Source: a virus
IMG/VR virus record: IMGVR_UViG_3300042475_001686
Span: 32,001 to 96,000 of that record
Reading direction: 5' to 3' (one strand)
Length of the DNA: 64,000 nt
The notes under the pieces are model-generated. The model did no database searches. It was not told the DNA's origin and saw nothing but the letters and a program-made list of their open reading frames with translations. Shown here piece by piece: positions 1 through 31,100 of the stretch (within the stretch, counting starts at the first letter, position 1; each line of letters starts with the position of its first letter). A program made the translations under genes and the position numbers.

Positions 1-45
1 TTACTAAGTGAGCCTCAATTATTTACAACACAGGAGGCTTACTAA

Positions 46-328
46 TATGGGAAGTAATTTCGCACACGATTTAGCGTTGTTTGATGATATGGCTATTGAG
101 AAGCAGATTAGAATTCACTTGTCTGCTAATCACTACCCACCCGTTCCACCTATCATGGTTCAACCTTGTGTTGAAGCCATTGACGCTGTGAATGACGCAG
201 GACTTTGGGATTTAGAAATTCCTATGCCTGAAGGTGTAAGTTATAAAGGTTTGACTACTGCTCCTGCTTGGGCTATTATTGAACAACACCACCTTGATGC
301 GTGGCTTATTGAAAGAGAGGAAGTCTAA
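46..328 (+). CDS. Hypothetical early phage protein
   Basis: ORF 8..328; the ATG at 46 follows an AGGAGG SD; stop overlaps the next start (TAATG). Confidence 0.7.
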
Positions 329-468
329 TGAAATTTGATGAAATGGTAGTAAAGGTTCTTGACCTATTCCCTGAAGCGTTCTTCCATGAAGGAGAAGATG
401 GCGAGGTAGTAATCTCAACAGGCTTCAGACTTGTAAATGACGAACTAATAGCGATGGAGGAAATCTAA
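328..468 (+). CDS. Small acidic hypothetical protein (46 aa, MKFDEMVVKVLDLFPEA...)
   Basis: Read manually; translationally coupled to the upstream ORF; GAGGA SD. Confidence 0.65.
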   Translation: MKFDEMVVKVLDLFPEAFFHEGEDGEVVISTGFRLVNDELIAMEEI

Positions 469-469
469 A

Positions 470-679
470 ATGGAATACACTTACTCACTTACTACTTCCT
501 ATGACGGAAGCCTTGTAAATACCCTGCGAGTATCAGACATGCTTGAAGCCGTAAATGTGTGGGATAAATGCGTAGACTTTGGAGATGCTAAGGAATACGC
601 AACCTACAACCTATCAGACCCAACAGGTAAAATGTATACAAAAACCTTTTATCGTAATGGAGAGGTATCCATTCGCTAA
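470..679 (+). CDS. Hypothetical protein
   Basis: ORF with GGAGG SD, tightly packed. Confidence 0.7.
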   Translation: MEYTYSLTTSYDGSLVNTLRVSDMLEAVNVWDKCVDFGDAKEYATYNLSDPTGKMYTKTFYRNGEVSIR

Positions 680-913
680 ATGTCTGATACAATGATTCGT
701 ATGGAAGAAGACTTTCGCTTGGTAGATATTCTCAACGCAGACCAATTAGAAGTAGGAGATCTAATTGGTTTGAATGATGAAGTTGTTAGAGTAATTGAAA
801 TTGCCCCAGCAAAATTTGGTTATGTTGTCACCTATGAAAATGAATTTGGTGAAAAAGAAATTTCAGATATAACTGATGATGAACGTTTTGAATTATTTAT
901 AGAAAACTTCTAA
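680..913 (+). CDS. Hypothetical small beta-barrel-like protein
   Basis: ORF abutting the upstream stop; LEVGDLI motif typical of SH3/KOW-like barrels. Confidence 0.65.
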   Translation: MSDTMIRMEEDFRLVDILNADQLEVGDLIGLNDEVVRVIEIAPAKFGYVVTYENEFGEKEISDITDDERFELFIENF

Positions 914-946
914 AAACCGCCTAGGCGATTCGGACAATTCGGACAT

Positions 947-975
947 TTGCATTTTTGTTATTTTTATGATAAGAT
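947..975 (+). promoter_or_regulatory. SigA-type promoter for a leaderless transcript
   Basis: TTGCAT-17-TAAGAT with extended TG; ATG 6 nt downstream at 982. Confidence 0.65.
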
Positions 976-981
976 TATTAC

Positions 982-1113
982 ATGATGAAAAAAACGGCTG
1001 AGGAATTACGCAGACTTATGGAATTACGCAGATCTAATGCTGCAACTCCATTAAGGAATAAAAAATCCTACTCCCGCAAAGTTAAACACAAAAAATTTGA
1101 CTTATCAAAATAA
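982..1113 (+). CDS. 43-aa basic microprotein with an ArfA-like C-terminal motif
   Basis: MMKKTAEELRRLMELRRSNAATPLRNKKSYSRKVKHKKFDLSK; leaderless start directly after a promoter. Confidence 0.6.
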   Translation: MMKKTAEELRRLMELRRSNAATPLRNKKSYSRKVKHKKFDLSK

Positions 1114-1125
1114 AAATGTTATAAT
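1097..1125 (+). promoter_or_regulatory. Strong SigA-type promoter
   Basis: TTGACT-17-TATAAT with extended TG, followed by AGAAAGGA SD. Confidence 0.8.
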
Positions 1126-1145
1126 AAAAATAAAGAAAGGAACCC

Positions 1146-1865
1146 ATGAAACTAAAACGTAGCATGGACAGAAAGGTAACTAATGCCGTCTCACCCAATG
1201 GAAAAACCCCAACAATTGCCAACACTTTTGGATTGCCTGCTGGAAAGGCTTTCTCGTGCCCTGGTGCCACCAATACTTGTGAAAGTGTTTGTTACGCAGG
1301 AAAACTTGAAAGAGTATACAAAGGAGTAAAGGCTGTACTCCTGCACAATTGGGAATTACTAAAAGACGCAGACCATGACACTATGGAAAACCTGCTGCAG
1401 GAAATGATTGAAGACTTTAGAAAAGATTGTGAAAAGAAAGACGCTCCTCTGCTATTCCGCATTCACTGGGACGGGGACTTCTTTTCTGATGAGTACGCAT
1501 TCGCATGGAAACACGTTATTCTAAATAACCCTGATATCAAATTCTGGGTTTATACACGTGTAGCCTCTGCTGCTAATATGCTAAAGAATATAGATAACTT
1601 ATCTCTATACTATTCAACAGATAAAGATAACAAAGAGATTGCTATTAGTCTAAATAAGGAAAAGGGCATTCGATTGGCATACCTTGCGGATACCTTCGCA
1701 ATTGGGCAGGCAGACCTAAAGGCAATGATAGGCAAGCCTGGTGCTAAGTGTCCTGAGAATAAAAAGGCTATTCCCCTAATCTCACAGGCAGGCAGCGCAT
1801 GCGTGTCTTGTGGCTTGTGTATTGACGAGAAATCTGATATAGTATTTAGCGCAAAGAAAAAGTAA
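1146..1865 (+). CDS. GP88-like phage protein (Cys-rich, radical-SAM-like Fe-S motif)
   Basis: SCPGATNTCESVCYA, FRIHWDGDF, FWVYTR and C-terminal CxxCxxC, the pattern of the Gene-product-88 family. Confidence 0.7.
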   Translation: MKLKRSMDRKVTNAVSPNGKTPTIANTFGLPAGKAFSCPGATNTCESVCYAGKLERVYKGVKAVLLHNWELLKDADHDTMENLLQEMIEDFRKDCEKKDAPLLFRIHWDGDFFSDEYAFAWKHVILNNPDIKFWVYTRVASAANMLKNIDNLSLYYSTDKDNKEIAISLNKEKGIRLAYLADTFAIGQADLKAMIGKPGAKCPENKKAIPLISQAGSACVSCGLCIDEKSDIVFSAKKK

Positions 1866-1936
1866 GGGACAGATGAAAATAATACTATTATTAGGGTGGG
1901 CTATGCTCCTATGGGTGCTTTTCTATCCCCCCCTAA

Positions 1937-1977
1937 AGTGACCTATCTCACAATCTCAAAATGTGAGAAATGTCAGA
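1937..1977. promoter_or_regulatory. Tandem CRP-like boxes
   Basis: AGTGA-N6-TCACA (1937-1952) and TGTGA-N6-TCAGA (1962-1977) just upstream of a promoter. Confidence 0.5.
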
Positions 1978-1983
1978 AATAAC

Positions 1984-2012
1984 TTGACACAGCAAAAAAT
2001 AAATGTCATAAT
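1984..2012 (+). promoter_or_regulatory. Strong SigA-type promoter
   Basis: TTGACA-17-CATAAT with extended TG. Confidence 0.75.
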
Positions 2013-2051
2013 AATAACAAGTAAGAAAACAACTAACAAAGGAGAAAGAAA

Positions 2052-2219
2052 ATGGCAGTAGCAACAGCAACCTACAAGGTAGGCGACCTATACACCTCAC
2101 AGAAGTCAAAGGTTACAGGCACTATCACAGAAATCAAGCCAAACAAGGACGGCTCAACTGTTCGTGTCAAACTTGATGTCAATGGCACACCTCGCTGGAC
2201 AACTTGGACAGCAAAGTAA
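2052..2219 (+). CDS. 55-aa SH3/KOW-like microprotein (paralog A)
   Basis: MAVATATYKVGDLYTSQKSKVTGTITEIK...; AAGGAG SD; own promoter; not in the ORF track. Confidence 0.75.
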   Translation: MAVATATYKVGDLYTSQKSKVTGTITEIKPNKDGSTVRVKLDVNGTPRWTTWTAK

Positions 2220-2235
2220 TTCCTAATACAGGAAA

Positions 2236-2265
2236 AGTCCTGAGCATGACTACTAAAACTGCTCA
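2236..2265 (+). ncRNA. H-type pseudoknot motif, copy 1
   Basis: AGTC-C-TGAGCA-T-GACT-ACTAAAAC-TGCTCA. Confidence 0.75.
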
Positions 2266-2266
2266 C

Positions 2267-2295
2267 TTGACTTTCTAACTGAAAAATGTTAGACT
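2267..2295 (+). promoter_or_regulatory. SigA-type promoter
   Basis: TTGACT-17-TAGACT with extended TG. Confidence 0.7.
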
Positions 2296-2331
2296 ATAAA
2301 TAACCCAAAACCCATAAGAAAGGAAAACAAA

Positions 2332-2754
2332 ATGGCAAGAAGCCAAAAAGCAATTAGCGTGAAAATCGCTACGACTAAAGTTATCAAGGCTTTAGAAACT
2401 AAGTTAGCACAAATCCAAAAGGATAAGGCTAATCAAGCAACTAACGAGGAGAAGTTCAACAAGGCTCACGAAAAGTGGTCTAAAGATGTTGCTAAACTTT
2501 CTCTCAACGCTATCAACAAGGCAGAGGACTTATCTGCTAATCTAAGATACAATGGCATGGTTCATGTTTCTTTTGATTTGCCTAAAGGTTCTATTGACCT
2601 ACCTGCTCAACCTGAAAAGGATTTTGACACTTATCATGAGTGGCAATACAAAGAAATGGTAGATGAAATTGAGAACGCTATTCGTATTCTCAAGATGACA
2701 GATGAGGAAGTAGTTTCTACCTCAACTTACAACGCTATCGCCCGATACTTGTAA
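2332..2754 (+). CDS. Hypothetical coiled-coil protein
   Basis: 140-aa ORF, AGAAAGGA SD. Confidence 0.8.
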   Translation: MARSQKAISVKIATTKVIKALETKLAQIQKDKANQATNEEKFNKAHEKWSKDVAKLSLNAINKAEDLSANLRYNGMVHVSFDLPKGSIDLPAQPEKDFDTYHEWQYKEMVDEIENAIRILKMTDEEVVSTSTYNAIARYL

Positions 2755-2759
2755 TTCAC

Positions 2760-2787
2760 TCTCCTGAGCATGAGATAAAACTGCTCA
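2760..2787 (+). ncRNA. H-type pseudoknot motif, copy 2
   Basis: TCTC-C-TGAGCA-T-GAGA-TAAAAC-TGCTCA. Confidence 0.75.
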
Positions 2788-2815
2788 CTAACAAAATAGA
2801 CAGAAAGGAAAACAA

Positions 2816-2983
2816 ATGACACTCGGAGGCTACACTTATCAGGTAGGAGATTTATTTACTACCAGCAAGACAGGCGTTACAGGACGAATTGAAAAGTTTG
2901 TTCCACAAAGTAAAAATGTAACTCGTGTAATGCTTCGTTTGGCAAATGGTCAGCAACGATTTGCTATGGTAAAGACTTACTAA
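2816..2983 (+). CDS. 55-aa SH3/KOW-like microprotein (paralog B)
   Basis: MTLGGYTYQVGDLFTTSKTGVTGRIEKF...; AGAAAGGA SD; similar to 2052..2219. Confidence 0.75.
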   Translation: MTLGGYTYQVGDLFTTSKTGVTGRIEKFVPQSKNVTRVMLRLANGQQRFAMVKTY

Positions 2984-3068
2984 TAAAATTGTTACTCTGT
3001 GTTCAAGGCAGACTGCGACACAAAATCGAATTGTGTTGATCTTTCTGCGAAAGTCCCTTGAGTAACCT

Positions 3069-3096
3069 TACTCCTGAGCATGAGTATAAACTGCTC
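3069..3096 (+). ncRNA. H-type pseudoknot motif, copy 3
   Basis: TACTC-C-TGAGCA-T-GAGTA-TAAAC-TGCTC. Confidence 0.75.
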
Positions 3097-3121
3097 CCCT
3101 CTCAAAAAATCGCCTAGGCAA

Positions 3122-3198
3122 TGTGATTTAAAACACAGTCCACTATGTGAGATAGTTTACGTTCTCGATTTGATTTCCCCTCTAAAAAATGTTATGAT
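3122..3198 (+). promoter_or_regulatory. Tandem CRP-like boxes plus SigA-type promoter
   Basis: TGTGA-N6-ACACA (3122-3137), TGTGA-N6-TTACG (3146-3161), TTGATT-17-TATGAT (3170-3198). Confidence 0.55.
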
Positions 3199-3224
3199 TA
3201 TATTATCTAAGAAAGGATAAATAA

Positions 3225-3488
3225 ATGATTAGCACCGCAATAGCAATACAAATGGCAACGCAGGACGCAGTTCATGACGAGAGTGTTATGGATTTGGCTT
3301 CTGCTCTTTATCATCACAGAAATGAAATGAGCGACGAGGACTTTGCTAAAGCAATGTTTATGTATTCTGCTCATCTATCAGCAATGACCGCTACTTTAGT
3401 TACTCATGCCTGCTTGACTGAAAGCCAACTAAATGATATGCTTGAAACAATAAAGGAAATGGATTCCATGGGAAAGGATATTGAATAA
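3225..3488 (+). CDS. Hypothetical protein
   Basis: ORF with AGAAAGGA SD. Confidence 0.75.
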   Translation: MISTAIAIQMATQDAVHDESVMDLASALYHHRNEMSDEDFAKAMFMYSAHLSAMTATLVTHACLTESQLNDMLETIKEMDSMGKDIE

Positions 3489-3928
3489 TGGAAACAACAG
3501 AAACCGTAGTACCCGAACACTACAACTCCAATCAACTCGTAACTTATAAGGTTATTGAGAATGGTGCCGCTACATATCCAACCGTAAAGGTTGTGGACCT
3601 TGAGTGGGACCTGTATCAGAATCGTTCTAATGCAGCCAGTCTGTCTCAATACATTAATAAAGTAAATCAGTTAGAGAATCGTCTTCCTGATTATCTTGAT
3701 ATGGATTCAGAAGATATTGTCTCTGATATCTGCAGCATTTTTGGATTCAACCCAACTAAGGAAATTGAATTCGAGGCAACAGCCACAATTACTGGTCGTG
3801 TACTTGTACCACTTAGTGATTTAGCAAACTTTGATATCGACGACATAGACTTAACCGTTTATGCAGATTCACATTCACACGACGTTGAAGTTGATGTAGA
3901 AGTTGACCACATCTCTCGTGTAGACTAA
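3488..3928 (+). CDS. Hypothetical acidic protein
   Basis: ORF coupled to the upstream stop (TAATG). Confidence 0.75.
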   Translation: METTETVVPEHYNSNQLVTYKVIENGAATYPTVKVVDLEWDLYQNRSNAASLSQYINKVNQLENRLPDYLDMDSEDIVSDICSIFGFNPTKEIEFEATATITGRVLVPLSDLANFDIDDIDLTVYADSHSHDVEVDVEVDHISRVD

Positions 3929-3935
3929 TAAATTT

Positions 3936-4038
3936 CTTGGCCTTCATGAAAGGGGCCAAGATCTGCAAGCATTGCTCCTCTTTCATCCTTTCTTTAGGGA
4001 GCATGCAAGGGACCTGAGCACGTCCACGTAAACTGCTC
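3936..4038 (+). ncRNA. Candidate sRNA: two hairpins (second with an anti-SD loop) plus pseudoknot copy 4
   Basis: CTTGGCC..GGCCAAG; GCATTGCTCC-[loop with TCCTTTCT]-GGAGCATGC; GGAC-C-TGAGCA-C-GTCC-ACGTAAAC-TGCTC (4010-4038). Confidence 0.6.
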
Positions 4039-4112
4039 TTTAAAAATTGCCTAGCCCGCAAAATCTTATTTTGTCAAATTTACGGCGTGTCGGGACATTT
4101 ACGTACCAGGAT

Positions 4113-4141
4113 TTGCAATTGTCAGAGGGTTATGCTAAGAT
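4113..4141 (+). promoter_or_regulatory. SigA-type promoter
   Basis: TTGCAA-17-TAAGAT with extended TG. Confidence 0.65.
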
Positions 4142-4173
4142 TGATAAATCACTTACAGAAAGGACAAAAAATA

Positions 4174-5190
4174 ATGGCGCATGAATTAGAAACGCAAAAT
4201 GGCGTTGCTTCTTTCGCATCATTCCGTGAACCTGCTTGGCATGGTCTTGGCACAGTATTCACGGAAGAAAAAACAACAGCAGAAATGTTATCTGCTGCTA
4301 ATCTAAACAATTGGAATGTTCGTCTTGAGGACGTAAATGTTCCATCTCACTTATCGTCAGATAAATCTTATCAATATGTTGTTCGCACTAACCCTACGGA
4401 TAACACACAGACCGATATTCTCGGTGTTGTTGGTGAGCGTTATCATGTTTTACAGAATGAAGATTTATTCTCATTCGGTGATAATATTCTTGACGGCGGA
4501 GGTCGTTGGGAAACTGCTGGCTCTATTCGTGGAGGTCGTGTTGTATTCGGTTCTCTTGCTCTTGAGCGTGAAACTGTATTAGACCCAAATGGTGTTGCGG
4601 ATAAGGTCAAAACTTATCTTCTCATCAATACATCACATGACGGCTCTATTGCTATTCAAGCAAGTATAACACCTGTTCGTGTTGTATGCGCTAACACTCT
4701 AAACCTTGCTCTTGGCTCTAAGCGTGGGCGTAATGCTATCAAGCAATCTTTCAAGATTCGCCACACACAGACCGCTAATGGTAAAGTTCAAATTGCTCGT
4801 GAGGCTCTTGGTCTTGCTAATGCTTACATGGACGCTTTCGACATCATGGCTAAACAAATGATTGAGAAAGAAATCACAGCGCAACAGTTCAATGATATTG
4901 TTCTCGCTGCGTATCCTAAGCCTGATGAAGAAAAGAAGGGCGCACTTACTCGTTGGACTAACAAGGTTGATGTTATCAATGACATCTACACAGGTGAGTT
5001 CAATGGCATGATTGCTGGCAATGCGTGGGGTGCTTTCAATGCTCTTACTGAACGCCTTGATTGGCATCGTTCTGCTCGTGGTGGAAATACTGAGGCAATG
5101 CTCGCTGCTGCTTCTGGTTTTGACGCAACAATTACAGCAGAAAAAAATCGCTTGCTAACTGTTGTAAAAAATACTTTGCAACTCGCATAG
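4174..5190 (+). CDS. DUF932-family phage/plasmid protein
   Basis: MAHELE..PAWHGLG, ETAGSIRGGRVVF, LLINTSHDGS, TPVRVVCANTL and IRHT motifs; AGAAAGGA SD before ATG 4174. Confidence 0.85.
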   Translation: MAHELETQNGVASFASFREPAWHGLGTVFTEEKTTAEMLSAANLNNWNVRLEDVNVPSHLSSDKSYQYVVRTNPTDNTQTDILGVVGERYHVLQNEDLFSFGDNILDGGGRWETAGSIRGGRVVFGSLALERETVLDPNGVADKVKTYLLINTSHDGSIAIQASITPVRVVCANTLNLALGSKRGRNAIKQSFKIRHTQTANGKVQIAREALGLANAYMDAFDIMAKQMIEKEITAQQFNDIVLAAYPKPDEEKKGALTRWTNKVDVINDIYTGEFNGMIAGNAWGAFNALTERLDWHRSARGGNTEAMLAAASGFDATITAEKNRLLTVVKNTLQLA

Positions 5191-5194
5191 CAAA

Positions 5195-5223
5195 ATTTCC
5201 TGAGCATGAAATAAAACTGCTCA
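5195..5223 (+). ncRNA. H-type pseudoknot motif, copy 5
   Basis: ATTTC-C-TGAGCA-T-GAAAT-AAAAC-TGCTCA, starting 5 nt after a stop codon. Confidence 0.75.
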
Positions 5224-5354
5224 ATTTTTATTTTTCAATTTGCAGATCATAACAAAAAATGCCTAGCAAAACCGACAAATCGGACATTGTATTTTTGTAA
5301 ATATTTTATTACGTAGCACTTGCTTTTTTTGCTGGATTGTGGGATAATAAATAT

Positions 5355-5552
5355 ATGACAATAGACGAACTAACAACCCACATATTTAAAATGCGTAATG
5401 GTTTGGAAGAAGACCTACGCAATCTTGCTGATGAAATGGAAGCACTTGACCCTGCTGCTAAAGACTTTGCTGACCTTGACTTTGAATATAATTTTATTAA
5501 TGGACAGGTAGCGGCATTCAATTACGTACTTACTAAGATAGGCCTACAATGA
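5355..5552 (+). CDS. Hypothetical protein (leaderless)
   Basis: TTGCTT-17-GATAAT (5320-5348), then ATG 6 nt later. Confidence 0.65.
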   Translation: MTIDELTTHIFKMRNGLEEDLRNLADEMEALDPAAKDFADLDFEYNFINGQVAAFNYVLTKIGLQ

Positions 5553-5692
5553 GCAGACTGTACACCATTGATGAATTAGTTACAGAGATCTATGAAGATA
5601 ACCTATCTCATTTTGATGACAGAGACACATCGGATGACTGTGATTGTCAGATCCATACTACCATTAGGACTATTGTGCAATATTGGGAGTAA
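5549..5692 (+). CDS. Small hypothetical protein (47 aa)
   Basis: ATGA overlap with the upstream stop; read manually. Confidence 0.55.
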   Translation: MSRLYTIDELVTEIYEDNLSHFDDRDTSDDCDCQIHTTIRTIVQYWE

Positions 5693-5693
5693 C

Positions 5694-5722
5694 TTGACAT
5701 ACCCCTGACATTTTGCTAAAAT
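5694..5722 (+). promoter_or_regulatory. Strong SigA-type promoter
   Basis: TTGACA-17-TAAAAT with extended TG. Confidence 0.8.
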
Positions 5723-5752
5723 TGCATTACGAACCCAACAGAAAGGACCCCA

Positions 5753-6487
5753 ATGCCCAATTGGTGCTACAACTATCTTGACATATCAGGTGACGAAACC
5801 CTGATTGCAGATATCAAACGACAACTCAACAAACCATTTGTAAAAGACCATGATTCATGGAATGCTACAACTGGACAAATGGAAGTATCTCAAACTACTT
5901 ACCCTAATCCTGTGTTTGCATTTCATAATATATATAATCATAGACAAGACGGTATTTCAGACGAGGAATATATCAAGCAACCTGACCATACCCTGCCTTT
6001 AGAGGAATCTCTTATGTTCAAGGGTAATCATTGGTACGACTGGAATGTTCGCAATTGGGGAACCAAATGGGACGTTGCTGTTCACGATAACGATAAGTAT
6101 CCTGATACTGAGTTATATGAGGAGAGCACTACAGTTCTTGGATATAAATTCAATACCGCTTGGTCTCCACCTATTCAGGCTATAACTAAACTATCAGAAC
6201 AATATCCTACTCTCAACTTCAATCTATCTTATGAAGAAGAAACAGGTTGGGGTGGGGAAGTTACATTGCTTAATGGTTTTATCACTACCGTTGAGGAATA
6301 CGAGAACAAGTGTCGTGACTGTGATGAACTTAACAGTCTTGAGTATTGTGAGAATGACTGCGGTGAGATATGTAATGTATGTCACTATATGGGCGAGGCT
6401 GACCTTGACTGTGTTGCAGAATGTCAGGACCACAAGGTATACTTGGATGAAAAGCATGTACCCGACTATAGATTGGAAAAGGCATAA
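5753..6487 (+). CDS. DUF1281/YubB-like ferredoxin-fold protein with a Cys-rich tail
   Basis: MPNWCYN, WYDWNVRNWGTKWD and FNTAWSPP motifs. Confidence 0.8.
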   Translation: MPNWCYNYLDISGDETLIADIKRQLNKPFVKDHDSWNATTGQMEVSQTTYPNPVFAFHNIYNHRQDGISDEEYIKQPDHTLPLEESLMFKGNHWYDWNVRNWGTKWDVAVHDNDKYPDTELYEESTTVLGYKFNTAWSPPIQAITKLSEQYPTLNFNLSYEEETGWGGEVTLLNGFITTVEEYENKCRDCDELNSLEYCENDCGEICNVCHYMGEADLDCVAECQDHKVYLDEKHVPDYRLEKA

Positions 6488-6771
6488 TGGAAATATCACC
6501 TACCGTGCTCGATGAGCGTTTACAAAAGTTAGTTAATCTTGGTGTTGAAGGTATCGACATCATGCACGGACAACTAAAGAATATGATGTATGAGGCTGAA
6601 GCAGAACTACGCATGGCCCAAGAGGTAGAGGAAGAAAACGACTATTCCGACGCCATGGAATCAATGGAACGTAAATATTGGGAGGGATATACAGACGCAC
6701 TTGCACTTTGCTACGGTTTGACGTATGATATATCTTTCGCTATTAAACAAAAGGAGACAGACAATGCTTAA
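6487..6771 (+). CDS. Hypothetical acidic protein
   Basis: ORF coupled to the upstream gene. Confidence 0.7.
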   Translation: MEISPTVLDERLQKLVNLGVEGIDIMHGQLKNMMYEAEAELRMAQEVEEENDYSDAMESMERKYWEGYTDALALCYGLTYDISFAIKQKETDNA

Positions 6772-7099
6772 GACAGATAAGTTAATACTAATAGGACAGT
6801 TTGCAGTAGACAGTGGTCAAGCCATTATTGGAGACCCATGCTATTTAGATGAGTGGAAAAACTGGGACAGAGAAGTAGATAACTTTGACGACCATGTTAA
6901 TAGAGTTGGTGAGTATGGCTACCTCGGTGCTTGCAACGCTACCATTACCAAGGGCTTTGGTGAATTAGGAAATCAAGCAGTAGCATTTTCTACTGGCTAT
7001 GGTGACGGTTTATATCCAGTTTATGCCCATATTAATGAGGACGGCAGAGTTGGAATGGTTGTAATCGATTTTACAGGAGAGTATCTTGATGATGAATGA
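6764..7099 (+). CDS. DUF4241-like protein
   Basis: VDSGQ..IGDPCY and FSTGYGDGxYPV motifs; AAGGAG SD. Confidence 0.7.
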   Translation: MLKTDKLILIGQFAVDSGQAIIGDPCYLDEWKNWDREVDNFDDHVNRVGEYGYLGACNATITKGFGELGNQAVAFSTGYGDGLYPVYAHINEDGRVGMVVIDFTGEYLDDE

Positions 7100-7170
7100 T
7101 TGGATCCAATTGACATTGCCGCTGGAATTTGATACCATTAACATAAACCCTACTACAGAAAGGACTCCTA

Positions 7171-7530
7171 ATGGGAGCACGTTGTAATTTCGTATTTAAA
7201 CAATCAGAGGACCAGGCTGTAACCCTATACAGTCACTGGGACGAAAGCCATATGTATGAACTGCTGGCAGCAGCGCTTGGACATGCAATGCCACGTATTG
7301 AAATGGGTGATATCCCGTATGCGACTCGAATGGCTATTAGTTATATTATTAAAGAATCTATTCTGGATGAGACAGGATATGGAATTTATGCCATGGACCC
7401 GTCAGACCAAGGATTCTTGGACCATCCAATCACCATTGATTTCACTGACATGACAGTTGGTGAGGGTGAGGCCTGGCATTCCATTAATGATTTTATTAAC
7501 TACAATCTTGTGACGACGGTCACTAAATAA
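7171..7530 (+). CDS. Hypothetical protein
   Basis: ORF with AGAAAGGA SD. Confidence 0.75.
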   Translation: MGARCNFVFKQSEDQAVTLYSHWDESHMYELLAAALGHAMPRIEMGDIPYATRMAISYIIKESILDETGYGIYAMDPSDQGFLDHPITIDFTDMTVGEGEAWHSINDFINYNLVTTVTK

Positions 7531-7609
7531 AGCGAAGACTGGGTACCTTCGCTTGTTGCCAGGGGGGCAGGTTCGACTGTCTACGGACTTGCCTCCCACA
7601 TCTTTTTTT
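7530..7609 (+). terminator. Double hairpin / intrinsic terminator
   Basis: AAGCGAAG/CTTCGCTT stem, then a 14-bp stem with 3 G.U pairs (7562-7597) followed by a T tract. Confidence 0.6.
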
Positions 7610-7632
7610 GATACAATCTATAAGGAGGAACT

Positions 7633-7878
7633 ATGGCTTACAGTGTTAGACGAGCACCACAGAATACCAAAGAAATACAAGTAGCACAGAGAATAGCAAA
7701 GATAATCAACGAAGACATGGGTCTAAACCTTGAGGCTGTTGGCTATCATTTGGTGAGAAACCACCCACCAATTGTATGGCACCGCCTTGAAGTTCTTGCC
7801 TTGACAGCAGGGGAAGAACATGATAAACTTATGTCAGACTATTTAGGAGAACAACATGTCGGTACCCTTTTCGGATAA
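7633..7878 (+). CDS. Hypothetical protein
   Basis: AAGGAGG SD; promoter TTGCCT-17-TACAAT at 7589-7617. Confidence 0.75.
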   Translation: MAYSVRRAPQNTKEIQVAQRIAKIINEDMGLNLEAVGYHLVRNHPPIVWHRLEVLALTAGEEHDKLMSDYLGEQHVGTLFG

Positions 7879-8146
7879 GTGCGGGATTTTAGGTCAGTTC
7901 TGGTTTGAATACAGAGATGACGAAAAACTCAAAGAGTTCATTTCTTATAATGACATTGGATTGCCTTTGTCATGGTTTATTGCTACGGGAGTGGTAACAC
8001 CAAACCCTATGGCAGAGGACTATGTAAATGAAACTTTCAATCTATTCTTGGCAGCATTAGAATTGTCAGAGGAAGAAATTGAGGGTTTGGATAGCCTAAA
8101 CGAAATCCTTGAAATCGTAGAAGCCAAGCAAGAGGACGAAGACTAA
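7856..8146 (+). CDS. Hypothetical acidic protein
   Basis: ORF overlapping the upstream gene end; AGGAG SD. Confidence 0.75.
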   Translation: MSVPFSDKCGILGQFWFEYRDDEKLKEFISYNDIGLPLSWFIATGVVTPNPMAEDYVNETFNLFLAALELSEEEIEGLDSLNEILEIVEAKQEDED

Positions 8147-15744: not shown

Positions 15745-15818
15745 GGAGCAGTAGCCAAGTTGGTCAAGGCCCCGAACTCATAATTCGGTTATCGTAGGTT
15801 CAAGTCCTACCTGCTCTA
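15745..15818 (+). tRNA. tRNA-Met/Ile2 (CAT)
   Basis: Cloverleaf: GGAGCAG/CTGCTCT acceptor, CTCATAA loop, TTCAAGT T loop; no CCA. Confidence 0.9.
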
Positions 15819-15822
15819 CTTT

Positions 15823-15895
15823 GCCCTTGTAGCCCAGTGGTAGAGGCACACGACTTAAAATCGTGCAAGCGTTGGTTCGAATCCAACCAGGGGCA
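15823..15895 (+). tRNA. tRNA-Leu (TAA), short variable arm
   Basis: GCCCTTG/CAGGGGC acceptor, CTTAAAA loop, TTCGAAT. Confidence 0.9.
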
Positions 15896-15899
15896 CTAA

Positions 15900-15972
15900 A
15901 CCTCTGTAACTCAGTGGATAGAGTAGCGGACTTCTAATCCGTTTGTCGTTGGTTCAAATCCAATCAGAGGTG
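15900..15972 (+). tRNA. tRNA-Arg (TCT)
   Basis: ACCTCTG/CAGAGGT acceptor, CTTCTAA loop. Confidence 0.9.
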
Positions 15973-15987
15973 CTACAATAGTAATAT

Positions 15988-16060
15988 TGATCTGTAGTTC
16001 AGTTGGTAGAACACTCGACTGTTAATCGAGATGTCGCAGGATCGAGACCTGCCAGATCAG
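15988..16060 (+). tRNA. tRNA-Asn (GTT), variant T loop
   Basis: TGATCTG/CAGATCA acceptor, CTGTTAA loop, T loop ATCGAGA. Confidence 0.85.
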
Positions 16061-16061
16061 C

Positions 16062-16111
16062 GATACAGACACGGTAGGAATGGGAATAGGAAGACCTATC
16101 GTGTCTGTATC
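16062..16111 (+). other. 17-bp hairpin with a purine-rich loop inside the tRNA cluster
   Basis: GATACAGACACGGTAGG / CCTATCGTGTCTGTATC, one G.U pair. Confidence 0.7.
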
Positions 16112-16115
16112 ATAT

Positions 16116-16189
16116 GGTCCGTTAGTTCAGTTGGTTAGAACGCTACCCTGTCACGGTAGAGGTCGTCGGTTCAAGTCCGATACGGATCG
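16116..16189 (+). tRNA. tRNA-Asp (GTC)
   Basis: GGTCCGT/ACGGATC acceptor, CTGTCAC loop. Confidence 0.9.
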
Positions 16190-16193
16190 CATT

Positions 16194-16265
16194 GGCTCCA
16201 TCGTCTATCGGTTAGGACATCAGATTTTCAATCTGGGAAGACGGGTTCGATTCCCGTTGGGGCTA
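16194..16265 (+). tRNA. tRNA-Glu (TTC)
   Basis: GGCTCCA/TGGGGCT acceptor, TTTTCAA loop, TTCGATT. Confidence 0.9.
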
Positions 16266-16308
16266 CGAGTTTGATATAATGGAATAACTACTAGTAGAAG
16301 GAAATGTA

Positions 16309-18393
16309 ATGTCAGAAGCAAAGTGCCCATTTACGGGTAACAGTTTAAATAATGAAGGAACATATAATAAAGATTGGTGGCCAAACCAATTAGACTTGTC
16401 TCCTTTAAGAAAGAATTCATCTAAGTCAGATCCAATGGGAGAAGACTTTGATTATGCTGAAGAGTTTAATAGTTTAGATCTTGATGCAGTCAAGAAGGAT
16501 ATTGATACACTTCTAACTACCTCGCAAGATTGGTGGCCTGCTGATTACGGCAACTATGGACCACTATTCATTCGCATGGCATGGCATAGCGCAGGAACAT
16601 ATAGAACAACTGATGGTCGTGGTGGTGCTGGAGAAGGTCTACATAGATTTGCCCCACAAAACTCATGGCCAGATAATGGTAATTTAGATAAGGCTCGTAG
16701 ACTTTTATGGCCTATCAAACAAAAATATGGAAAGAAGATTTCATGGGCAGACCTCATGATTCTTGCTGGTAATGTTGCTCTTGAAAACATGGGCTTTAAA
16801 ACTTTCGGTTTTGGTGGAGGTCGTGTAGATGTTTGGGAAGCAGACGATACATATTGGGGTAGCGAAAAGGAATGGCTTGCAGACAACCGTTATAGCGGTG
16901 ATCGTGAGTTAGAGAATCCTCTTGCTGCTGTACAAATGGGTTTGATTTATGTCAACCCTGAAGGACCAAACGGTAATCCAGATCCATTGTTATCTGCACG
17001 AGATATCCGTGAGACATTCGCAAGAATGGCAATGAATGATGAAGAGACCGTTGCTCTTATTGCTGGTGGACATGCATTCGGTAAAGCACATGGTGCTGGA
17101 GATCCCAAGAATGTTGGACCAGAACCAGAAGGCGCATCTATTGAAGAGCAGGGCCTTGGCTGGAAGAATTCATTTGGTAAGGGTAATGCAGAAGATACCA
17201 TTACAAGTGGTATTGAAGGTGCATGGACTCCTACACCAACTAAGTGGGATAACTCCTACTTAAAGATTCTATTTAAGTATGATTGGAAGCAGGTAAAGTC
17301 TCCTGCTGGTGCGACACAATGGATTCCTACAGATGAATCTGCTGTTAATTTAGTACCAGATGCACATGTTGAAGGAAAGTTTCATGCTCCAGTGATGACA
17401 ACAGCAGATTTGGCTCTCAAGTTTGATCCAGAATACGAAAAGATTTCAAGAAGATTCTTAGAAGACTTTGACTATTTCTCAGATCAATTTGCTCGTGCTT
17501 GGTTTAAACTAACACACAGAGATATGGGTCCTGTTGCTCGTTATCTTGGCAAAGAAGTTCCTACAGAAGAACTAATTTGGCAAGATCCAGTACCAAGCAA
17601 TGTTAATATGAATATTGATGTAGAGTCTATCAAGAAGGCTATTAAGTCTTCTGGTATACCACTATATTATTTCGTATATACTGCGTGGTCTTCTGCATCT
17701 ACTTTCCGTAAAACAGATAAGCGTGGTGGAGCAAATGGTGCACGTATTCGCTTGGAACCTCAAATAAGTTGGGACTCCAACAATAAAGAAGTTATCTCCA
17801 CTGTAATTAATTATTTAGAAACATTGCAGAAGGAATACTCAGCATCATTAGCAGACTTAATTGTTCTTGCTGGATGCGCTGCTATCGAAAAGGTATCTGA
17901 AGAAAAGGTTGTAGTACCATTTACACCTGGAAGAACAGATGCAACACAAGAACAAACAGATGTGGAATCATTTAGTGTTCTTGAACCGATTGCAGATGGC
18001 TTTAAGAATTATTTAAAAGATGGAGTTATAACTCCTTCAGAAGTTCTTTTAGTTGAAAAGGCAAATATGCTAAACCTAACACCAGTAGAGATGGTTGTTC
18101 TATTGAGTGGAATGAGAACATTAATGACAAACAGACTAAGCAATGGTTATTTGATCAGTTTGTTATCTGGACAAATTACCTGGAAACAAACATCTATCAA
18201 TAATTTTGAAGGATATGTTGGTGGTGATCTTATAGGTAACGCAAGTCGTGTTGATCTTATTTTCGGATCTAATTCAGAACTTCGTGCTATTGCAGAAGTC
18301 TATGCTTCTGACGATGCAGAACAAAAGTTTATGGATGATTTTGCTCAGGCATGGAATAAGGTAATGATGCTTGATAGATTTGATGTAAGATAG
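16309..18393 (+). CDS. katG: Catalase-peroxidase
   Basis: [48 protein letters not shown]; own extended -10 (16272-16280) and AGAAGGA SD. Confidence 0.97.
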
Positions 18394-18401
18394 TAGGGGT
18401 T

Positions 18402-18473
18402 GCCTCCTTAACTCAGGGGTAGAGTACCCGCCTTGTAAGCGGGTTGTCGTAGGTTCAAATCCTACAGGAGGCT
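18402..18473 (+). tRNA. tRNA-Thr (TGT)
   Basis: GCCTCCT/AGGAGGC acceptor, CTTGTAA loop, TTCAAAT. Confidence 0.9.
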
Positions 18474-18489
18474 CTGATATAATTTGGTT

Positions 18490-20136: not shown

Positions 20137-20163
20137 GAGCAGTTTCTCCACATGCTCAGGTGG
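20137..20163 (-). ncRNA. H-type pseudoknot motif, copy 6
   Basis: Minus strand CCAC-C-TGAGCA-T-GTGG-AGAAAC-TGCTC, 3' of the Hsp20 gene. Confidence 0.75.
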
Positions 20164-23295: not shown

Positions 23296-23580
23296 TTATA
23301 GCCAATACTTTAGTATAGCAGTTAAAGCAAGAATTGTCCAGAGGATGTTGAACCAAATAATTGTGGGCAATGTCTTGACAGTTGATGACCAGATTAATGC
23401 TAAACTAGTTATTAAAGCAATTATATAAAGCCACCAAATCTGTGTATTGAATAAAAGCCCTGGAATAATAATTGCTGCCTTGGTCATAAATGCAAAGAAC
23501 TCAACAGTATTAGGTTTATTCCAATACTCTTTATGCCCCATAGTTTTTAAAGCGTTTATCCATTCTGTTTTAAAGTTCAT
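23296..23580 (-). CDS. Small integral membrane protein
   Basis: Three hydrophobic segments. Confidence 0.65.
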   Translation of the reverse strand: MNFKTEWINALKTMGHKEYWNKPNTVEFFAFMTKAAIIIPGLLFNTQIWWLYIIALITSLALIWSSTVKTLPTIIWFNILWTILALTAILKYWL

Positions 23581-25121
23581 TTTAGTGAGTCCAAAAACTT
23601 TCTATGATCAGTACACTCTGAAACCTTATAGTTCTGATAATTAACAAAATAGTCATACATCTCTAATCCAGCCTTATAATCTTTTGATAGTTCTAAGTAA
23701 TTTTTTGCTATGCTCTTGTTTATTGTATTTTGTTCCGCTCCAATTTGGAACCAACTAGCACTAGCCCATGCTTTCCCTACATCAGACTTTGCTGGCAATC
23801 TATGTTGCCATACATTAATTTTTTCTTTAAGTCTTGCTGGAGCATTTTCATAAGAAAATTTTTCCCAGAACTTAGTATCTTTTCTTAAAGTCATATAATG
23901 AAAATAAATAAAGTCAGATATGTCATCGTTCATCTCTAACATAGTTTTATTGAATTCATCTCTTCTTGCCTGGGAGTTATCAAAAAGCCATGCTGGATTA
24001 TTAAAAATGTTTGTAAGTTCTGTAACACTTACCCAGATAGAAGTTGCTTCCAAAGGCTCAATAAAGTTAGCAGCAAGACCTACTGCGATGCAGTTATTTA
24101 TCCATAACTCCTCATAAGATCCAGCACTAAACCTAAATCCACCCTTATCTTTTCTTGGATACTTTGGCTCATATCCTAAAAATTCTTCTATTTCTTTTAC
24201 TGCTTCTTCTTCTGATATTAAAGAAGAGTCATATACATACCCGCATCCAAATCTATCCTGTAATGGAATCTTCCATATCCAACCATATTTCATTGCTATT
24301 GCCTCTGTGTACGGTGGTATATCTTCTGTCATTTCAATAAAAAATGGAACAGCAGAGTCTTCTGGCAAAAAGTCTTTATAACTTTTCCATTTTGCATTAA
24401 AGACTTTTCCTATAATTAATCTATGAAAACCACTACAATCAAAAATAAAATCACAATAAATCTTTTCATTATTTTCTAATGTTAAACTTTCTACATTATT
24501 ATTTTCATCTAAAGATACATTAATAATTGTTCCTTCAATAAGTTTAATTCCACGAATCAGTCCTATTTCTTTTAACTTATTTGCAAGTTTAACGGCATTA
24601 AAGTGAATTGATATAGCACCTATCTGATTATATTTGTTAATGCCTTCTTTTTCTTGGGAAAATCCAAATGACTGTTTTGTATCTTTAAGAATAAAAGGAA
24701 CCTTATTATTTTCTGAAACTTTTTCCATAAAATTGATTTCTTTAAGACTATCATTTTTTGATAATCCTGCTACCATAAAAGAACTAGTAGATAGATATGG
24801 TTCAGATGCTGGCTCAAAACCTAAAGACCTATCAGACAAAGCAAATGCATGATAAAAAAATTCATTATCATTATTCCAATTAGTAAATTTAATTCCATTT
24901 TTGATAGTTGCATCACAGTGTAAAATTAATTCTGATAATGGAATTTCTAAATGATTTAAAAAATCTGTTAAGAATGGTGTAGATCCCTCTCCAGCACCTA
25001 AAATTCCTATATCGTTTGATTCTATAACTGTTACTTCTAAGTCTGGGTATGATCTTTTGGCTTTGAGTGCTGTTAACCAGCCAGCAGTGCCTCCACCTAC
25101 TACAACTACCTTTTTAATCAT
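23577..25121 (-). CDS. Flavin-dependent halogenase (tryptophan halogenase family)
   Basis: VVGGGTAGW, GAGEGS, ATIKNGI (catalytic Lys position), FDCSGF, WIWKIP, FIEPLEATSI. Confidence 0.9.
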   Translation of the reverse strand: MIKKVVVVGGGTAGWLTALKAKRSYPDLEVTVIESNDIGILGAGEGSTPFLTDFLNHLEIPLSELILHCDATIKNGIKFTNWNNDNEFFYHAFALSDRSLGFEPASEPYLSTSSFMVAGLSKNDSLKEINFMEKVSENNKVPFILKDTKQSFGFSQEKEGINKYNQIGAISIHFNAVKLANKLKEIGLIRGIKLIEGTIINVSLDENNNVESLTLENNEKIYCDFIFDCSGFHRLIIGKVFNAKWKSYKDFLPEDSAVPFFIEMTEDIPPYTEAIAMKYGWIWKIPLQDRFGCGYVYDSSLISEEEAVKEIEEFLGYEPKYPRKDKGGFRFSAGSYEELWINNCIAVGLAANFIEPLEATSIWVSVTELTNIFNNPAWLFDNSQARRDEFNKTMLEMNDDISDFIYFHYMTLRKDTKFWEKFSYENAPARLKEKINVWQHRLPAKSDVGKAWASASWFQIGAEQNTINKSIAKNYLELSKDYKAGLEMYDYFVNYQNYKVSECTDHRKFLDSLK

Positions 25122-28825: not shown

Positions 28826-29082
28826 TAGTTTTCGCTCCCTACTAATCGGTTCTCCACAAGTCGTTCTCTTTCATCAATAACTTCTAATGCAAACTTCATC
28901 ATATTATCATACCCAATTGCATTATCCATTGCCTTATTGTAGTGATGACCACAAAACAAAAGAGAAGATCCTGACTTACCAATTACCTTCACATATGCTT
29001 GGGCAGAGCAACGATCACAACGATCTGTTGCGTCTAGAAGCCATACCTTTTCTTCTGGTTTGTTCTTCAACATACTAAACAT
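28825..29082 (-). CDS. Actinobacterial-type small Zn-binding protein
   Basis: DRCDRCSAQAYV..LLFCGHH; start uncertain. Confidence 0.65.
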   Translation of the reverse strand: MFSMLKNKPEEKVWLLDATDRCDRCSAQAYVKVIGKSGSSLLFCGHHYNKAMDNAIGYDNMMKFALEVIDERERLVENRLVGSEN

Positions 29083-29083
29083 A

Positions 29084-29293
29084 TTATACCCTTCTATTAT
29101 CAGTTGTATAGAATCCAGAGCCATTGAATGTGACTCCTACATTAGAGTATACACGAACTAAAGGCTTATTGCAAGTATCGCAGTCATACCCTGGATCATT
29201 ATCAGACATTGATCTAATCTTTGTATATCTTATGGCACAAGACATACAGTCATATTCATATGATGGCACTACTTTTTCTTTCGCAACTGCCAA
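29084..29293 (-). CDS. FmdB-family zinc-ribbon protein
   Basis: P.YEY.C..C...C..C...RVYS..GV.F.GSGFY.TD. Confidence 0.8.
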   Translation of the reverse strand: MAVAKEKVVPSYEYDCMSCAIRYTKIRSMSDNDPGYDCDTCNKPLVRVYSNVGVTFNGSGFYTTDNRRV

Positions 29294-29369
29294 ACAGGTA
29301 TCCCACGAGGGGCGGTACTAAGTTCATAGCCAAGGACTTTCGCTACAAATCTTATAATTTTTATACGCA

Positions 29370-29588
29370 TTATTTTACCTTCCTTCCAAACCTAGCCCAT
29401 ACTCTTTCATGCAAATAAAAAAATGTCATCTCTAATGAAAGATACATAAGTCCATATAGACCAACATACTCCCACTCTGCTTCTCCAGTAAAATATTTTA
29501 ATACAAAGTAGATTATGCCAGCAACAAATGTAAAATGTACAAATGGCCAACTAATAGTTTTTAATAAACTTTTCTTTTTTGACTCCAT
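29370..29588 (-). CDS. DUF2061-like membrane protein
   Basis: ES.K.SL.KTISW ... FYLHERVW. Confidence 0.75.
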   Translation of the reverse strand: MESKKKSLLKTISWPFVHFTFVAGIIYFVLKYFTGEAEWEYVGLYGLMYLSLEMTFFYLHERVWARFGRKVK

Positions 29589-29630
29589 GGTATTTCTCCT
29601 TTATCTTATTATATCATCTTTGAAATTAGA

Positions 29631-31100
29631 TTATTGTTTGGTAACAACAATCTTATCAAAACTACCCTGCTTAATAACCTCAATGGTTAATCCACCAAAA
29701 CTTACTTTATCACCTTCATAAAGTAAAACATCTAAACTAGAATTTGACAAACTTCCATTGCATATTGTTGTTTCCATGTTATTTCTATTATTAGGAATAA
29801 CAGGAACCAAAAAATCTTGACCATGTCCCAGGGTTAAATCTAAAACATAGACTAACACGCCATCCCTTGGTTTTTTTGTAGTGCAAGAAAATTTATTAAC
29901 TCTTCTTGATTCAACAATTAAGGCCTTTGTTTCTGACAGTGGAAGTATTGCTAATTTAATTCCAGAGTCTTGGCTACTAAGTGGGACCAAGTCTATTTCT
30001 ACTTTAGTTATAGACTTAGAGTCTTTACAGTATACCTTTTCATCGGACATCCATCTTATCAAAAATTGAAGCCAGCCACTTAATTCTCTGGTACTCCCGT
30101 CTTGGTTTCCCATAACATCCCAATCCCAAAAAGGAGAATACCCTGTATTTCCTCCGACATGTGGAAGTCCTATCGAATGTCCAAACTCATGTACCCAATA
30201 ATTCCAAAGTGACTTATTATCTTTCGTTTGATACTTACCAGCAATTGAAAATGATGATATACGTCCTTCGTTTGTTATATAGTCTTTAACGTGTTGCTCC
30301 CAAGGAAAGCCATTCTCTCCTTCGTTGGCAATATTTTGATTTGCAGGTAGTATGAAAATGACAGTCTGAATATTAGTAAAATCAAATGTTGGATCTGCAG
30401 TGGCCATTGCAGTTCTAAAAAATTTAACTCCACCAGGTGTGCTATTGACTCCTTTGGTCAAAGTATAATCTGTAGATACGCCAGGTAAAGTTATCCATTT
30501 ATCTGATACTACCCATTCGACTTTAAACTTTCCCTCGCTGGTATTATAAAACCATTCAGATAACAGATTCATTTGTATATCCATGCTAGATCTAAAGTTC
30601 TTTTCTCCTGGCATATCTGAGAAATCCACGGGGATGAATGCCCATTTTACAGTTCCAGTTTTTTGGGTTAGAGGTTGTAAATTAGGAAAACCAGCCCAAG
30701 TGAAACCTCTTCTTTGGCTTGACTCTATTAACTTACAACGTTCAATGCTATCACCCGCTACAGATGGTGGTGCATATTGAACTGTAGTTTTAGTTGGTGT
30801 CGGTGTCGGAGTCGGAGTCGGTGTTGGTGTTGGAGTTGGTGTTGGAGTTGGTGTTACAGTAGGTCTTGGGGTAGGACTAACGCTTGGAACTGGTATTGGT
30901 GTAACAGTTTTTTTAACTGCCCACCTATAAAATCTACCATCTTTTAGACAAATACGATTGTTCTCAATCTTATTTACCTTTGATTTTGGGCAGGCTGCTC
31001 TGGTAATTGTATATTCACTTACATTATTTTGTGCAACTGGAGTTGGAGTTGGAGCAATTAATGATGCTATAGTTACCGCAGAAACGCATACAACGCACAT
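29631..31100 (-). CDS. Secreted M6-like zinc metalloprotease with a Pro-Thr linker
   Basis: IPVDFSD, HEFGHSIGLPH, WDVMG, ESRR, GVLVY; N-terminal hydrophobic segment. Confidence 0.75.
   Translation of the reverse strand: MCVVCVSAVTIASLIAPTPTPVAQNNVSEYTITRAACPKSKVNKIENNRICLKDGRFYRWAVKKTVTPIPVPSVSPTPRPTVTPTPTPTPTPTPTPTPTPTPTKTTVQYAPPSVAGDSIERCKLIESSQRRGFTWAGFPNLQPLTQKTGTVKWAFIPVDFSDMPGEKNFRSSMDIQMNLLSEWFYNTSEGKFKVEWVVSDKWITLPGVSTDYTLTKGVNSTPGGVKFFRTAMATADPTFDFTNIQTVIFILPANQNIANEGENGFPWEQHVKDYITNEGRISSFSIAGKYQTKDNKSLWNYWVHEFGHSIGLPHVGGNTGYSPFWDWDVMGNQDGSTRELSGWLQFLIRWMSDEKVYCKDSKSITKVEIDLVPLSSQDSGIKLAILPLSETKALIVESRRVNKFSCTTKKPRDGVLVYVLDLTLGHGQDFLVPVIPNNRNNMETTICNGSLSNSSLDVLLYEGDKVSFGGLTIEVIKQGSFDKIVVTKQ
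30793..30855 (-). repeat. (Pro-Thr)n coding repeat
   Basis: About ten 6-nt units encoding TPTPTP... Confidence 0.85.

Follow-up and report, generated by a model that had tools for sequence, protein, structure and literature searches.

A covarying RNA module of two hairpins and a pseudoknot, with an anti-Shine-Dalgarno-like loop, follows an early operon of an uncultured freshwater phage

The element described here lies in the genome of an uncultured freshwater phage, an IMG/VR virus record of 117,492 bp. The stretch analysed, hereafter the window, comprises 64,000 nucleotides (record bases 32,001-96,000), has a G+C content of ~36%, and contains seven tRNA genes. A megablast search of window 3000-6000 against phage records returned no match. 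At the protein level, Streptomyces phages of 121-135 kb are the closest cultured relatives, with 51-53% identity for the DUF932 protein and 54-56% for the DnaE-like polymerase, and GP88 ('Gene product 88') is the Pfam family matched by one early protein. On the basis of these relatives and of the GP88 match, the host is probably a low-G+C freshwater actinobacterium. The 16S rRNA of Actinobacteria ends in CCUCCUUUCU. The features relevant to the analysis are as follows, in window coordinates.

1131-1141, + strand: SD region TAAAGAAAGGA of gene 1146, an 11-nt exact complement of 3986-3996
3209-3218, + strand: SD region AAGAAAGGAT of the operon that precedes the element (first gene 3225-3488), a 10-nt exact complement of loop 2
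3225-3488, + strand: first gene of this early two-gene operon
3488-3928, + strand: second gene of the operon, 146 aa (from the ORF list)
3935-4038, + strand: whole element, directly 3' of the stop codon of ORF 3488-3928
3935-3961, + strand: hairpin 1, with an 8-bp stem (3935-3942/3954-3961) and the 11-nt loop TTCATGAAAGG at 3943-3953
3969-4006, + strand: hairpin 2, with a 10-bp stem and the 17-nt loop CTTTCATCCTTTCTTTA at 3980-3996
3981-3987, + strand: 5' half of loop 2 (CUUUCAU), whose complement AUGAAAG lies in loop 1 at 3946-3952
3986-3994, + strand: anti-SD core UCCUUUCUU, complement of AAGAAAGGA
4010-4038, + strand: H-type pseudoknot, S1 4010-4013/4022-4025 and S2 4016-4020/4034-4038, copy 4 of a dispersed family
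2239-2264, 2763-2786, 3073-3096, 4013-4038, and 5199-5222, + strand, and 20137-20160, - strand: copies of the pseudoknot motif
4174-5190, + strand: DUF932 gene, downstream of the element, with the SD AGAAAGGA at 4157-4164

The element is a structured module of ~105 nt, in which hairpin 1 and hairpin 2 are followed by the H-type pseudoknot. The TAA stop codon of ORF 3488-3928 occupies 3926-3928, and hairpin 1 begins 7 nt downstream. The first-pass annotation of this DNA had proposed a small RNA with a 5' hairpin, a stem exposing a pyrimidine loop, and a terminal pseudoknot. All three parts are there: 3935-3942 pairs with 3954-3961, the stem of hairpin 2 is present in the sequence and covaries in relatives, and the pseudoknot is the fourth of five + strand copies. 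In hairpin 2, the 5' strand runs from G3969 to C3978 with T3973 bulged, the 3' strand from G3998 to C4006, and the closing pair is U3979.G3997. Its loop contains TCCTTTCT at 3986-3993. The CUUUCAU half and the AUGAAAG of loop 1 can form 7 bp (-7.0 kcal/mol with duplexfold), so a kissing contact between the two loops is predicted as possible. The fold of the single sequence is modest, with -34.9 kcal/mol (z -2.35) on the + strand and -33.2 kcal/mol (z -1.24) on the - strand. Both the element and the adjoining pseudoknot are missing from Rfam: only the seven tRNAs reach the gathering threshold when the whole window is searched with Rfam 15, and window 1-8000 gives 0 matches up to E = 5, for the pseudoknot and for the 6C family alike.

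The 146-aa protein encoded just upstream has no Pfam or PHROG match. Its 586 homologues are all hypothetical proteins, its ESM Atlas clusters hold hypothetical proteins only, and its AlphaFold model (pLDDT 80.7) has no PDB match at E <= 0.001. Nothing in these results speaks for an RNA-binding protein that would regulate itself by way of the loop.

The conservation of the element was studied at related loci. We found 419 DUF932 relatives in IMG/VR and compared the best 80 of the 419 loci, 12 of which carry a CCTTTCT-loop hairpin ahead of the pseudoknot. A strict two-loop pattern retrieved 32 viral contigs with one copy each, from which 19 distinct sequences were aligned. Across these, 15 of the 27 stem pairs are changed on both sides, and standard pairing is kept in 99.6% of the 513 alignment cells. 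Hairpin 1 shows changes on both sides in 7 of its 8 pairs, with 100% of cells paired, and hairpin 2 in 8 of its 10 pairs, with 98.9% paired. The covariation score was reached by none of 500 shuffles, and sliding the partners by 1-3 columns as a control lowers pairing to 29-42%. Both loops are invariant in the 19 sequences, loop 2 corresponding to alignment columns C48-T62. The expectation that the loop would be conserved while the stem varies was thus strongly borne out, and we regard the RNA structure and its anti-SD loop as almost certainly real.

A covariance model built from this alignment gave 11 full-length matches at 120-131 bits, one per locus, in 81 sources; the next-best score, 33 bits, is due to the pseudoknot part. 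All 130 matches of the model are on the + strand of their locus, i.e., that of the DUF932 gene. Together with four G.U cells in the alignment and the gene orientation, this favours a + strand RNA. Broader scans were dominated by chance. The exact 15-nt loop occurs in at least 117 stretches of IMG/VR, and among the 118 instances listed, the hairpin-1 motif accompanies 7 and the pseudoknot 8; the remaining instances mostly lack a hairpin and are chance matches. A scan for CCTTTCTT...CCTGAGCA was set aside since, among the matches listed, the relevant ones were swamped by chance ones. The strict two-loop pattern matched once in 185,579 prokaryote genomes, in a 1.9-kb Treponema MAG contig that lacks the hairpins, and we read this match as chance. 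Separately, an unrelated viral contig of higher G+C content (L309, 615 nt, 57% G+C) carries the identical 15-nt loop CTTTCATCCTTTCTT on a G+C-rich hairpin of 12 bp (reverse strand, 288-327), which adjoins GAGAAAGGG and precedes a gene start by ~45 nt.

Several divergent variants indicate which part of loop 2 is retained when the rest changes. Two of them (L219, L022) have the standard loop on other stems, and five (L002, L399, L413, L349, L363) have other stems and altered loops. The only loop segment common to all divergent variants is YCCUUUCUU, the complement of AAGAAAGGR. Hairpin 1 is missing from L399 and L413, and that of L002 has a different loop; CUUUCAU is absent from these three, and L349 retains only UUCAU. 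Among the variants seen, AUGAAAG in loop 1 and CUUUCAU in loop 2 either occur together or vanish together, whereas YCCUUUCUU is retained even without hairpin 1 and the CUUUCAU half. Loop 2 may therefore consist of two parts, judging from these sequences: one half that may kiss hairpin 1 and an anti-SD half that is kept regardless of hairpin 1. Because both kissing segments are invariant in the alignment, no covariation can be obtained for them. Most relatives have another structure at this place, a short GGGG-loop hairpin (TAGTAGGGGGCTACTA or GATAGGGGGCTATC) that replaces hairpins 1 and 2. It lies ~230 nt before the DUF932 start in L024, L035, L046, L052, and many other loci, and its stem takes in the stop codon of the upstream gene.

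The anti-SD half of the loop corresponds to a particular class of ribosome-binding sequences. AGAAAGGA occurs nine times on the two strands of the window, against 3.96 +/- 2.13 expected, a number reached in 4 of 100 shuffles. Seven of the nine copies are on the + strand (1134, 2317, 2802, 3210, 4157, 5740, and 7157), each 4-9 nt ahead of the ATG of a gene (1146, 2332, 2816, 3225, 4174, 5753, and 7171, respectively). These are the seven genes for which the first-pass annotation had described 3986-3993 as the complement of the SD, and every site was found. In a crude whole-genome ORF call (163 ORFs, each start picked by SD match), all 13 AGAAAGG-type SDs fall at genome positions 28,848-39,171, a block of small early genes that are on the + strand in all but one case. 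The AGAAAGG-type class is thus confined to the early gene block. The block also contains AGGAGG or AAAGGAG SDs, e.g., for the genes at genome 31,264, 32,047, and 38,764. Replication and structural genes elsewhere have AGGAG/GGAGG-type SDs, and other genes look leaderless. The leaderless mRNAs invoked earlier have candidates in 18 of the 163 crude ORFs, where an extended -10 (TGnTAnnnT) ends 5-8 nt before the start; ORFs of this kind, e.g., at window 10697 and 19952, likely give leaderless mRNAs.

Five of the seven AGAAAGGA genes lie downstream of a promoter listed by the promoter scan and having a TG-extended -10, with leaders of ~15-30 nt, and no promoter was found for the gene at 2816. For the DUF932 gene, a promoter absent from the scan list can be read by eye (TTGCAA at 4113-4118, 17 nt, TGnTAAGAT at 4133-4141). 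In the window, a few to ~20 nt separate the AGAAAGGA sites from the 5' ends predicted for these short-leader mRNAs. Among the 80 loci, all 12 with hairpin 2 use AGAAAGGA sites, at a density of 0.53 per kb versus 0.19 per kb in the 68 others. Yet 12 related loci of 4.7-7 kb each have 4-6 AGAAAGGA sites and no hairpin 2 (L004, L005, L010, L011, L013, L014, L020, L029, L033, L038, L040, and L043), and this SD class therefore does not depend on the element.

Loop 2 can pair with 8-12 contiguous bases of the early SD sites. The longest complement, 12 nt, is at genome 31,090, and the 11-nt perfect match between 3986-3996 and 1131-1141 that had been noted previously is exact. The operon preceding the element is transcribed from a predicted promoter at 3170-3198, which leaves a leader of ~20 nt; its 10-nt SD match to the loop is surpassed by matches of 12 and 11 nt elsewhere in the genome. 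Of the 28 related configurations listed, 23 have an exact complement of 8-12 nt between the loop and the leading SD of this operon, located 713-805 nt upstream. At locus L002, the loop has C in place of U and the operon's own SD has G in place of A, which preserves a 10-nt complement, and in L012 and L022, a GGG in this SD faces the UCC of an unchanged loop as a G.U wobble. The flanks of the loop and of the SD show 0-2 extra matches per case when examined for co-variation. Any anti-SD-like sequence matches SDs by definition, and the complementarity is not specific to the element's own operon. The predicted duplexes between loop and leader have a median of -10.4 kcal/mol for the 23 ORFs of the early block versus -7.5 for the other 140, and reach -10 kcal/mol or lower in 15 of the 23 versus 18 of the 140. 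Because a 10-nt motif of the 16S rRNA tail gives the same early-versus-rest trend (-10.0 versus -6.4), these energies do not show that the loop is selective.

The pseudoknot that ends the element is part of a family of its own. The motif CCTGAGCA-N-AAACTGCTC has five + strand copies, starting at 2239, 2763, 3073, 4013, and 5199, and a sixth on the - strand at 20137. These six genome copies, each shortly past a gene end, follow the consensus NNNNC-CUGAGCA-N-GNNNN-(N)UAAAAC-UGCUC, and the family is found in at least 134 viral stretches. Among 147 distinct instances, S1 forms at least 4 contiguous pairs in 108, compared with 9.4% in a shuffled-partner control, and takes 55 differing sequences. 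S2 shows the compensatory variants GGCCA/TGGCC, GGGCA/TGCCC, AAGCA/TGCTT, and GATCA/TGATC, in a parse that required pairing. The two helices thus covary as expected of an H-type pseudoknot, with the reservation that pairing was presupposed when S2 was parsed. A T-rich run follows the pseudoknot in 41 of the 147 instances. The structure is not simply a terminator, because the copy at 2763-2786 sits between two cistrons that have no promoter between them.

The motif AAAA-N(1-3)-GCCTAG(G/C) occurs at window 912-924, 3105-3117, 4042-4054, and 5254-5266 and at genome 30958, upstream of early promoters and often followed by CGGACA(T)TT; relatives have TTATCCACA repeats and GTGATC...GATCAC palindromes at the same place. 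A conserved structured stretch at 2990-3070 (GTTCAAGGCAGA ... TCTGCGAAAGTCCC within GTTACTC/GAGTAAC) precedes pseudoknot copy 3 and is shared with loci L037, L069, L072, and L073. A double hairpin followed by a T run lies at window 7533-7610, with counterparts at ~6590-6650 of L005 and ~6600-6670 of L008, and is probably an intrinsic terminator. Its second loop, which reads CCCCTTTCT in L005 and L008, was considered as another anti-SD-like loop and dropped, as the loop of the window hairpin (7563-7597) is unrelated.

Taken together, the sequence suggests that the element is probably a 3'-UTR module of the early operon 3225-3928, which might be processed, and that a separate sRNA gene is improbable. 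Positions read from the sequence place it 7 nt past a stop codon. Its motif complements the SD at the head of the operon, a property of icaR-type elements (see below). A metatranscriptome contig of one relative spans the upstream gene and the element, a kind of evidence that cannot prove a single transcript. In RNA contigs from four metatranscriptome runs, positions 4046-4139 are uncovered in all and cover resumes at 4173-4176; as contigs do not reveal where transcripts end and DNA may be present in an RNA library, this pattern is not counted as evidence. No site at 3930-4045 appears in the terminator scan. The sequence after hairpin 2, AAGGGACC, has no T run, so that this hairpin differs from an intrinsic terminator, and the TTTAAAAATT that follows the pseudoknot does not make it a canonical one.

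Among the mechanisms considered, the best supported, if tentatively held and somewhat short of an even chance in our view, is an action of the loop through base pairing with the SDs of early genes. Hairpin 2 displays in its loop UCCUUUCUU(UA), the complement of the early ribosome-binding sequence (UA)AAGAAAGGA, which would pair with early leaders both within its own mRNA, from 3' UTR to 5' UTR, and in trans. The resulting duplexes of 8-12 bp would extend upstream of the 8-nt AGAAAGGA core into the A-rich bases 5' of it. If the 16S rRNA of the host ends in ...CCUUUCU-3', its tail would have no bases for this upstream flank. Pairing would hinder binding of the 30S subunit and could create a double-stranded RNase substrate, and translation of early genes would be damped or shut off, with GGAGG-led and leaderless messages unaffected. 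A long life of the 3' fragment would be due to the structures on either side. What the sequences show is the structure with its conservation and strand, the complementarity, and the confinement of the SD class to the early block; that pairing occurs in vivo, which way it acts, and whether a separate RNA is processed out are matters of inference. With one anti-SD for ~13 early SDs, the device is stoichiometrically weak unless the fragment accumulates, and the invariance of the whole 15-nt loop exceeds what pairing with SDs needs.

A stronger version of the pairing mechanism, which we consider rather unlikely, is an early shut-off switch made of RNA only, in which a stable 3'-UTR fragment would out-compete the ribosome for the AAGAAAGGA class of SDs. 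The fragment would do so by pairing upstream of the AGAAAGGA core, beyond the reach of a 16S rRNA ending in CCUUUCU. Middle and late messages that are GGAGG-led or leaderless would then still be translated, and the phage would time its expression by mimicking the docking sequence of the ribosome. Temporal control in phages is mostly known from proteins, i.e., sigma and anti-sigma factors, nucleases such as RegB, and repressors. The switch would add a route to early shut-off at the level of RNA, via an anti-SD shown to one class of early messages, in abundant, uncultured phages of freshwater hosts, probably Actinobacteria. With a target class this short and well defined, the case can be tested directly.

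Known systems offer partial parallels. The RegB endoribonuclease of T4 is a protein that cuts GGAG and switches off early mRNAs at their SDs; it is likewise a phage device directed against the SDs of early mRNAs, whereas here an RNA would mask another class of SD. In ColE1, RNA I and RNA II form an antisense loop-loop kissing complex. The resemblance lies in two loops with ~7 complementary bases; here, in contrast, both loops belong to a single RNA and their contact is a prediction. No paper describing a phage anti-SD hairpin or this element came up in the literature search. The closest parallel is the 3' UTR of the icaR mRNA of Staphylococcus aureus, in which a UCCCCUG binds the SD of its own mRNA, thereby keeping ribosomes from loading and making an RNase III substrate (PMC3868564). 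This motif lies 260 nt past the stop codon and was proven by gel shifts, toeprints, and mutants, and the authors allow for action in cis or in trans (PMC3868564). Both systems have a pyrimidine-rich motif that matches the SD of its own message, located in a 3' UTR in icaR and in a probable one here. They differ in that icaR is a host gene with UCCCCUG, while our element is phage-borne, starts 7 nt past the stop, presents UCCUUUCUU in the loop of a covarying hairpin that has another hairpin on one side and a pseudoknot on the other, and matches a whole class of ~13 early SDs. A second parallel is with sRNAs such as 6C of Actinobacteria, whose C-rich loops bind targets without a chaperone (PMC6486639), and with the UCCC-motif sRNAs such as RsaE named in PMC3868564. 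The shared trait is the use of pyrimidine-rich hairpin loops for purine-rich mRNA sites, and 6C belongs to the likely host phylum of our phage. 6C is a separate gene with C-run loops, in contrast to the element, whose loops TTCATGAAAGG and CTTTCATCCTTTCTTTA have no such runs and whose mixed U/C loop copies the extreme 3' end of the rRNA tail.

Four other explanations of the element have to be weighed against pairing with early SDs. One, possible though on the unlikely side, is a purely structural 3'-end module that terminates, processes, or stabilises the early transcript, with loops that kiss or bind a protein and an incidental likeness to the anti-SD. The pseudoknot does recur, without the hairpins, after five other gene ends and in the many viral stretches of its family, and the presence of the GGGG-loop hairpin at the same place in most relatives means that the position tolerates other modules. 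The 7-bp AUGAAAG/CUUUCAU complementarity, its halves being present or absent together, and the full invariance of the 15-nt loop beyond what SD pairing needs also speak for a structural role. However, YCCUUUCUU is kept in L399, L413, L002, L349, and L363 without hairpin 1 or its loop motif, so the anti-SD half has a role independent of kissing; this half also matches the SD class of the early block precisely, and no T run follows hairpin 2. The long invariant loop could suggest recognition by something other than the variable flanks of SDs, as in a decoy that copies the 3' tail of 16S rRNA and soaks up a factor acting on this tail, whether a host nuclease or toxin, a phage protein, or a ribosomal protein. 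Some MazF-type toxins cut rRNA at the anti-SD, and UCCUUUCU is common to the loop and the 16S tail motif. But no candidate partner was found, the adjacent proteins having no family or structural match, and the CCUCC core of the tail is absent from the loop, so that a decoy seems to us quite improbable.

The remaining two explanations concern how the element is expressed. The first-pass annotation took it for a free-standing trans-acting sRNA that silences AGAAAGGA-led mRNAs of host and phage. Of this, the structured + strand RNA with an anti-SD loop holds, and the separate gene, which would require its own promoter, is not supported: the element begins 7 nt past a stop codon and no promoter is listed for it. 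A TTGACC (17 nt) TAATAA in the window does end at 3932, just ahead of hairpin 1, structured ends are what one would expect of a stable small RNA, and the loop matches many SDs. Yet the promoter scan lists no site at 3900-3935, TTGACC/TAATAA included. In relatives, the hexamers before hairpin 1 are spaced 11-12 nt apart or missing, which leaves no promoter with conserved spacing, and TTGAC is there part of the conserved C-terminal coding sequence. The RNA-library contig of one relative that bridges the upstream gene and the element adds weakly to this, and we consider a free-standing sRNA improbable. A very improbable explanation is that the motif provides a - strand gene with its SD and start, or that the inverted repeats work at the level of DNA. 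AAGAAAGGATG does read on the - strand, the ORF list has an 82-aa ORF with a TTG start at 3813-4061, and the - strand folds too (-33.2 kcal/mol). The SD that had been suggested there, AGAAAGGATG, nevertheless abuts its ATG without a spacer, and the ORF starting at this ATG comprises 7-57 aa in 18 distinct variants, with 7 aa in three, and is broken in frame by spacer indels, leaving no conserved protein. In addition, a - strand RNA would have A.C mismatches at the four G.U cells, and the early genes are on the + strand in all but one case. The alternative of a translated - strand ORF, raised as a possible refutation of the anti-SD loop, therefore fails.

Beyond the early block, the phage has genes for a 694-aa member of the peroxidase family (PF00141) at window 16309-18393 on the + strand and a tryptophan-halogenase-family protein (PF04820) at 23577-25121 on the - strand. 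Its seven tRNAs are listed with window 15745-18474.
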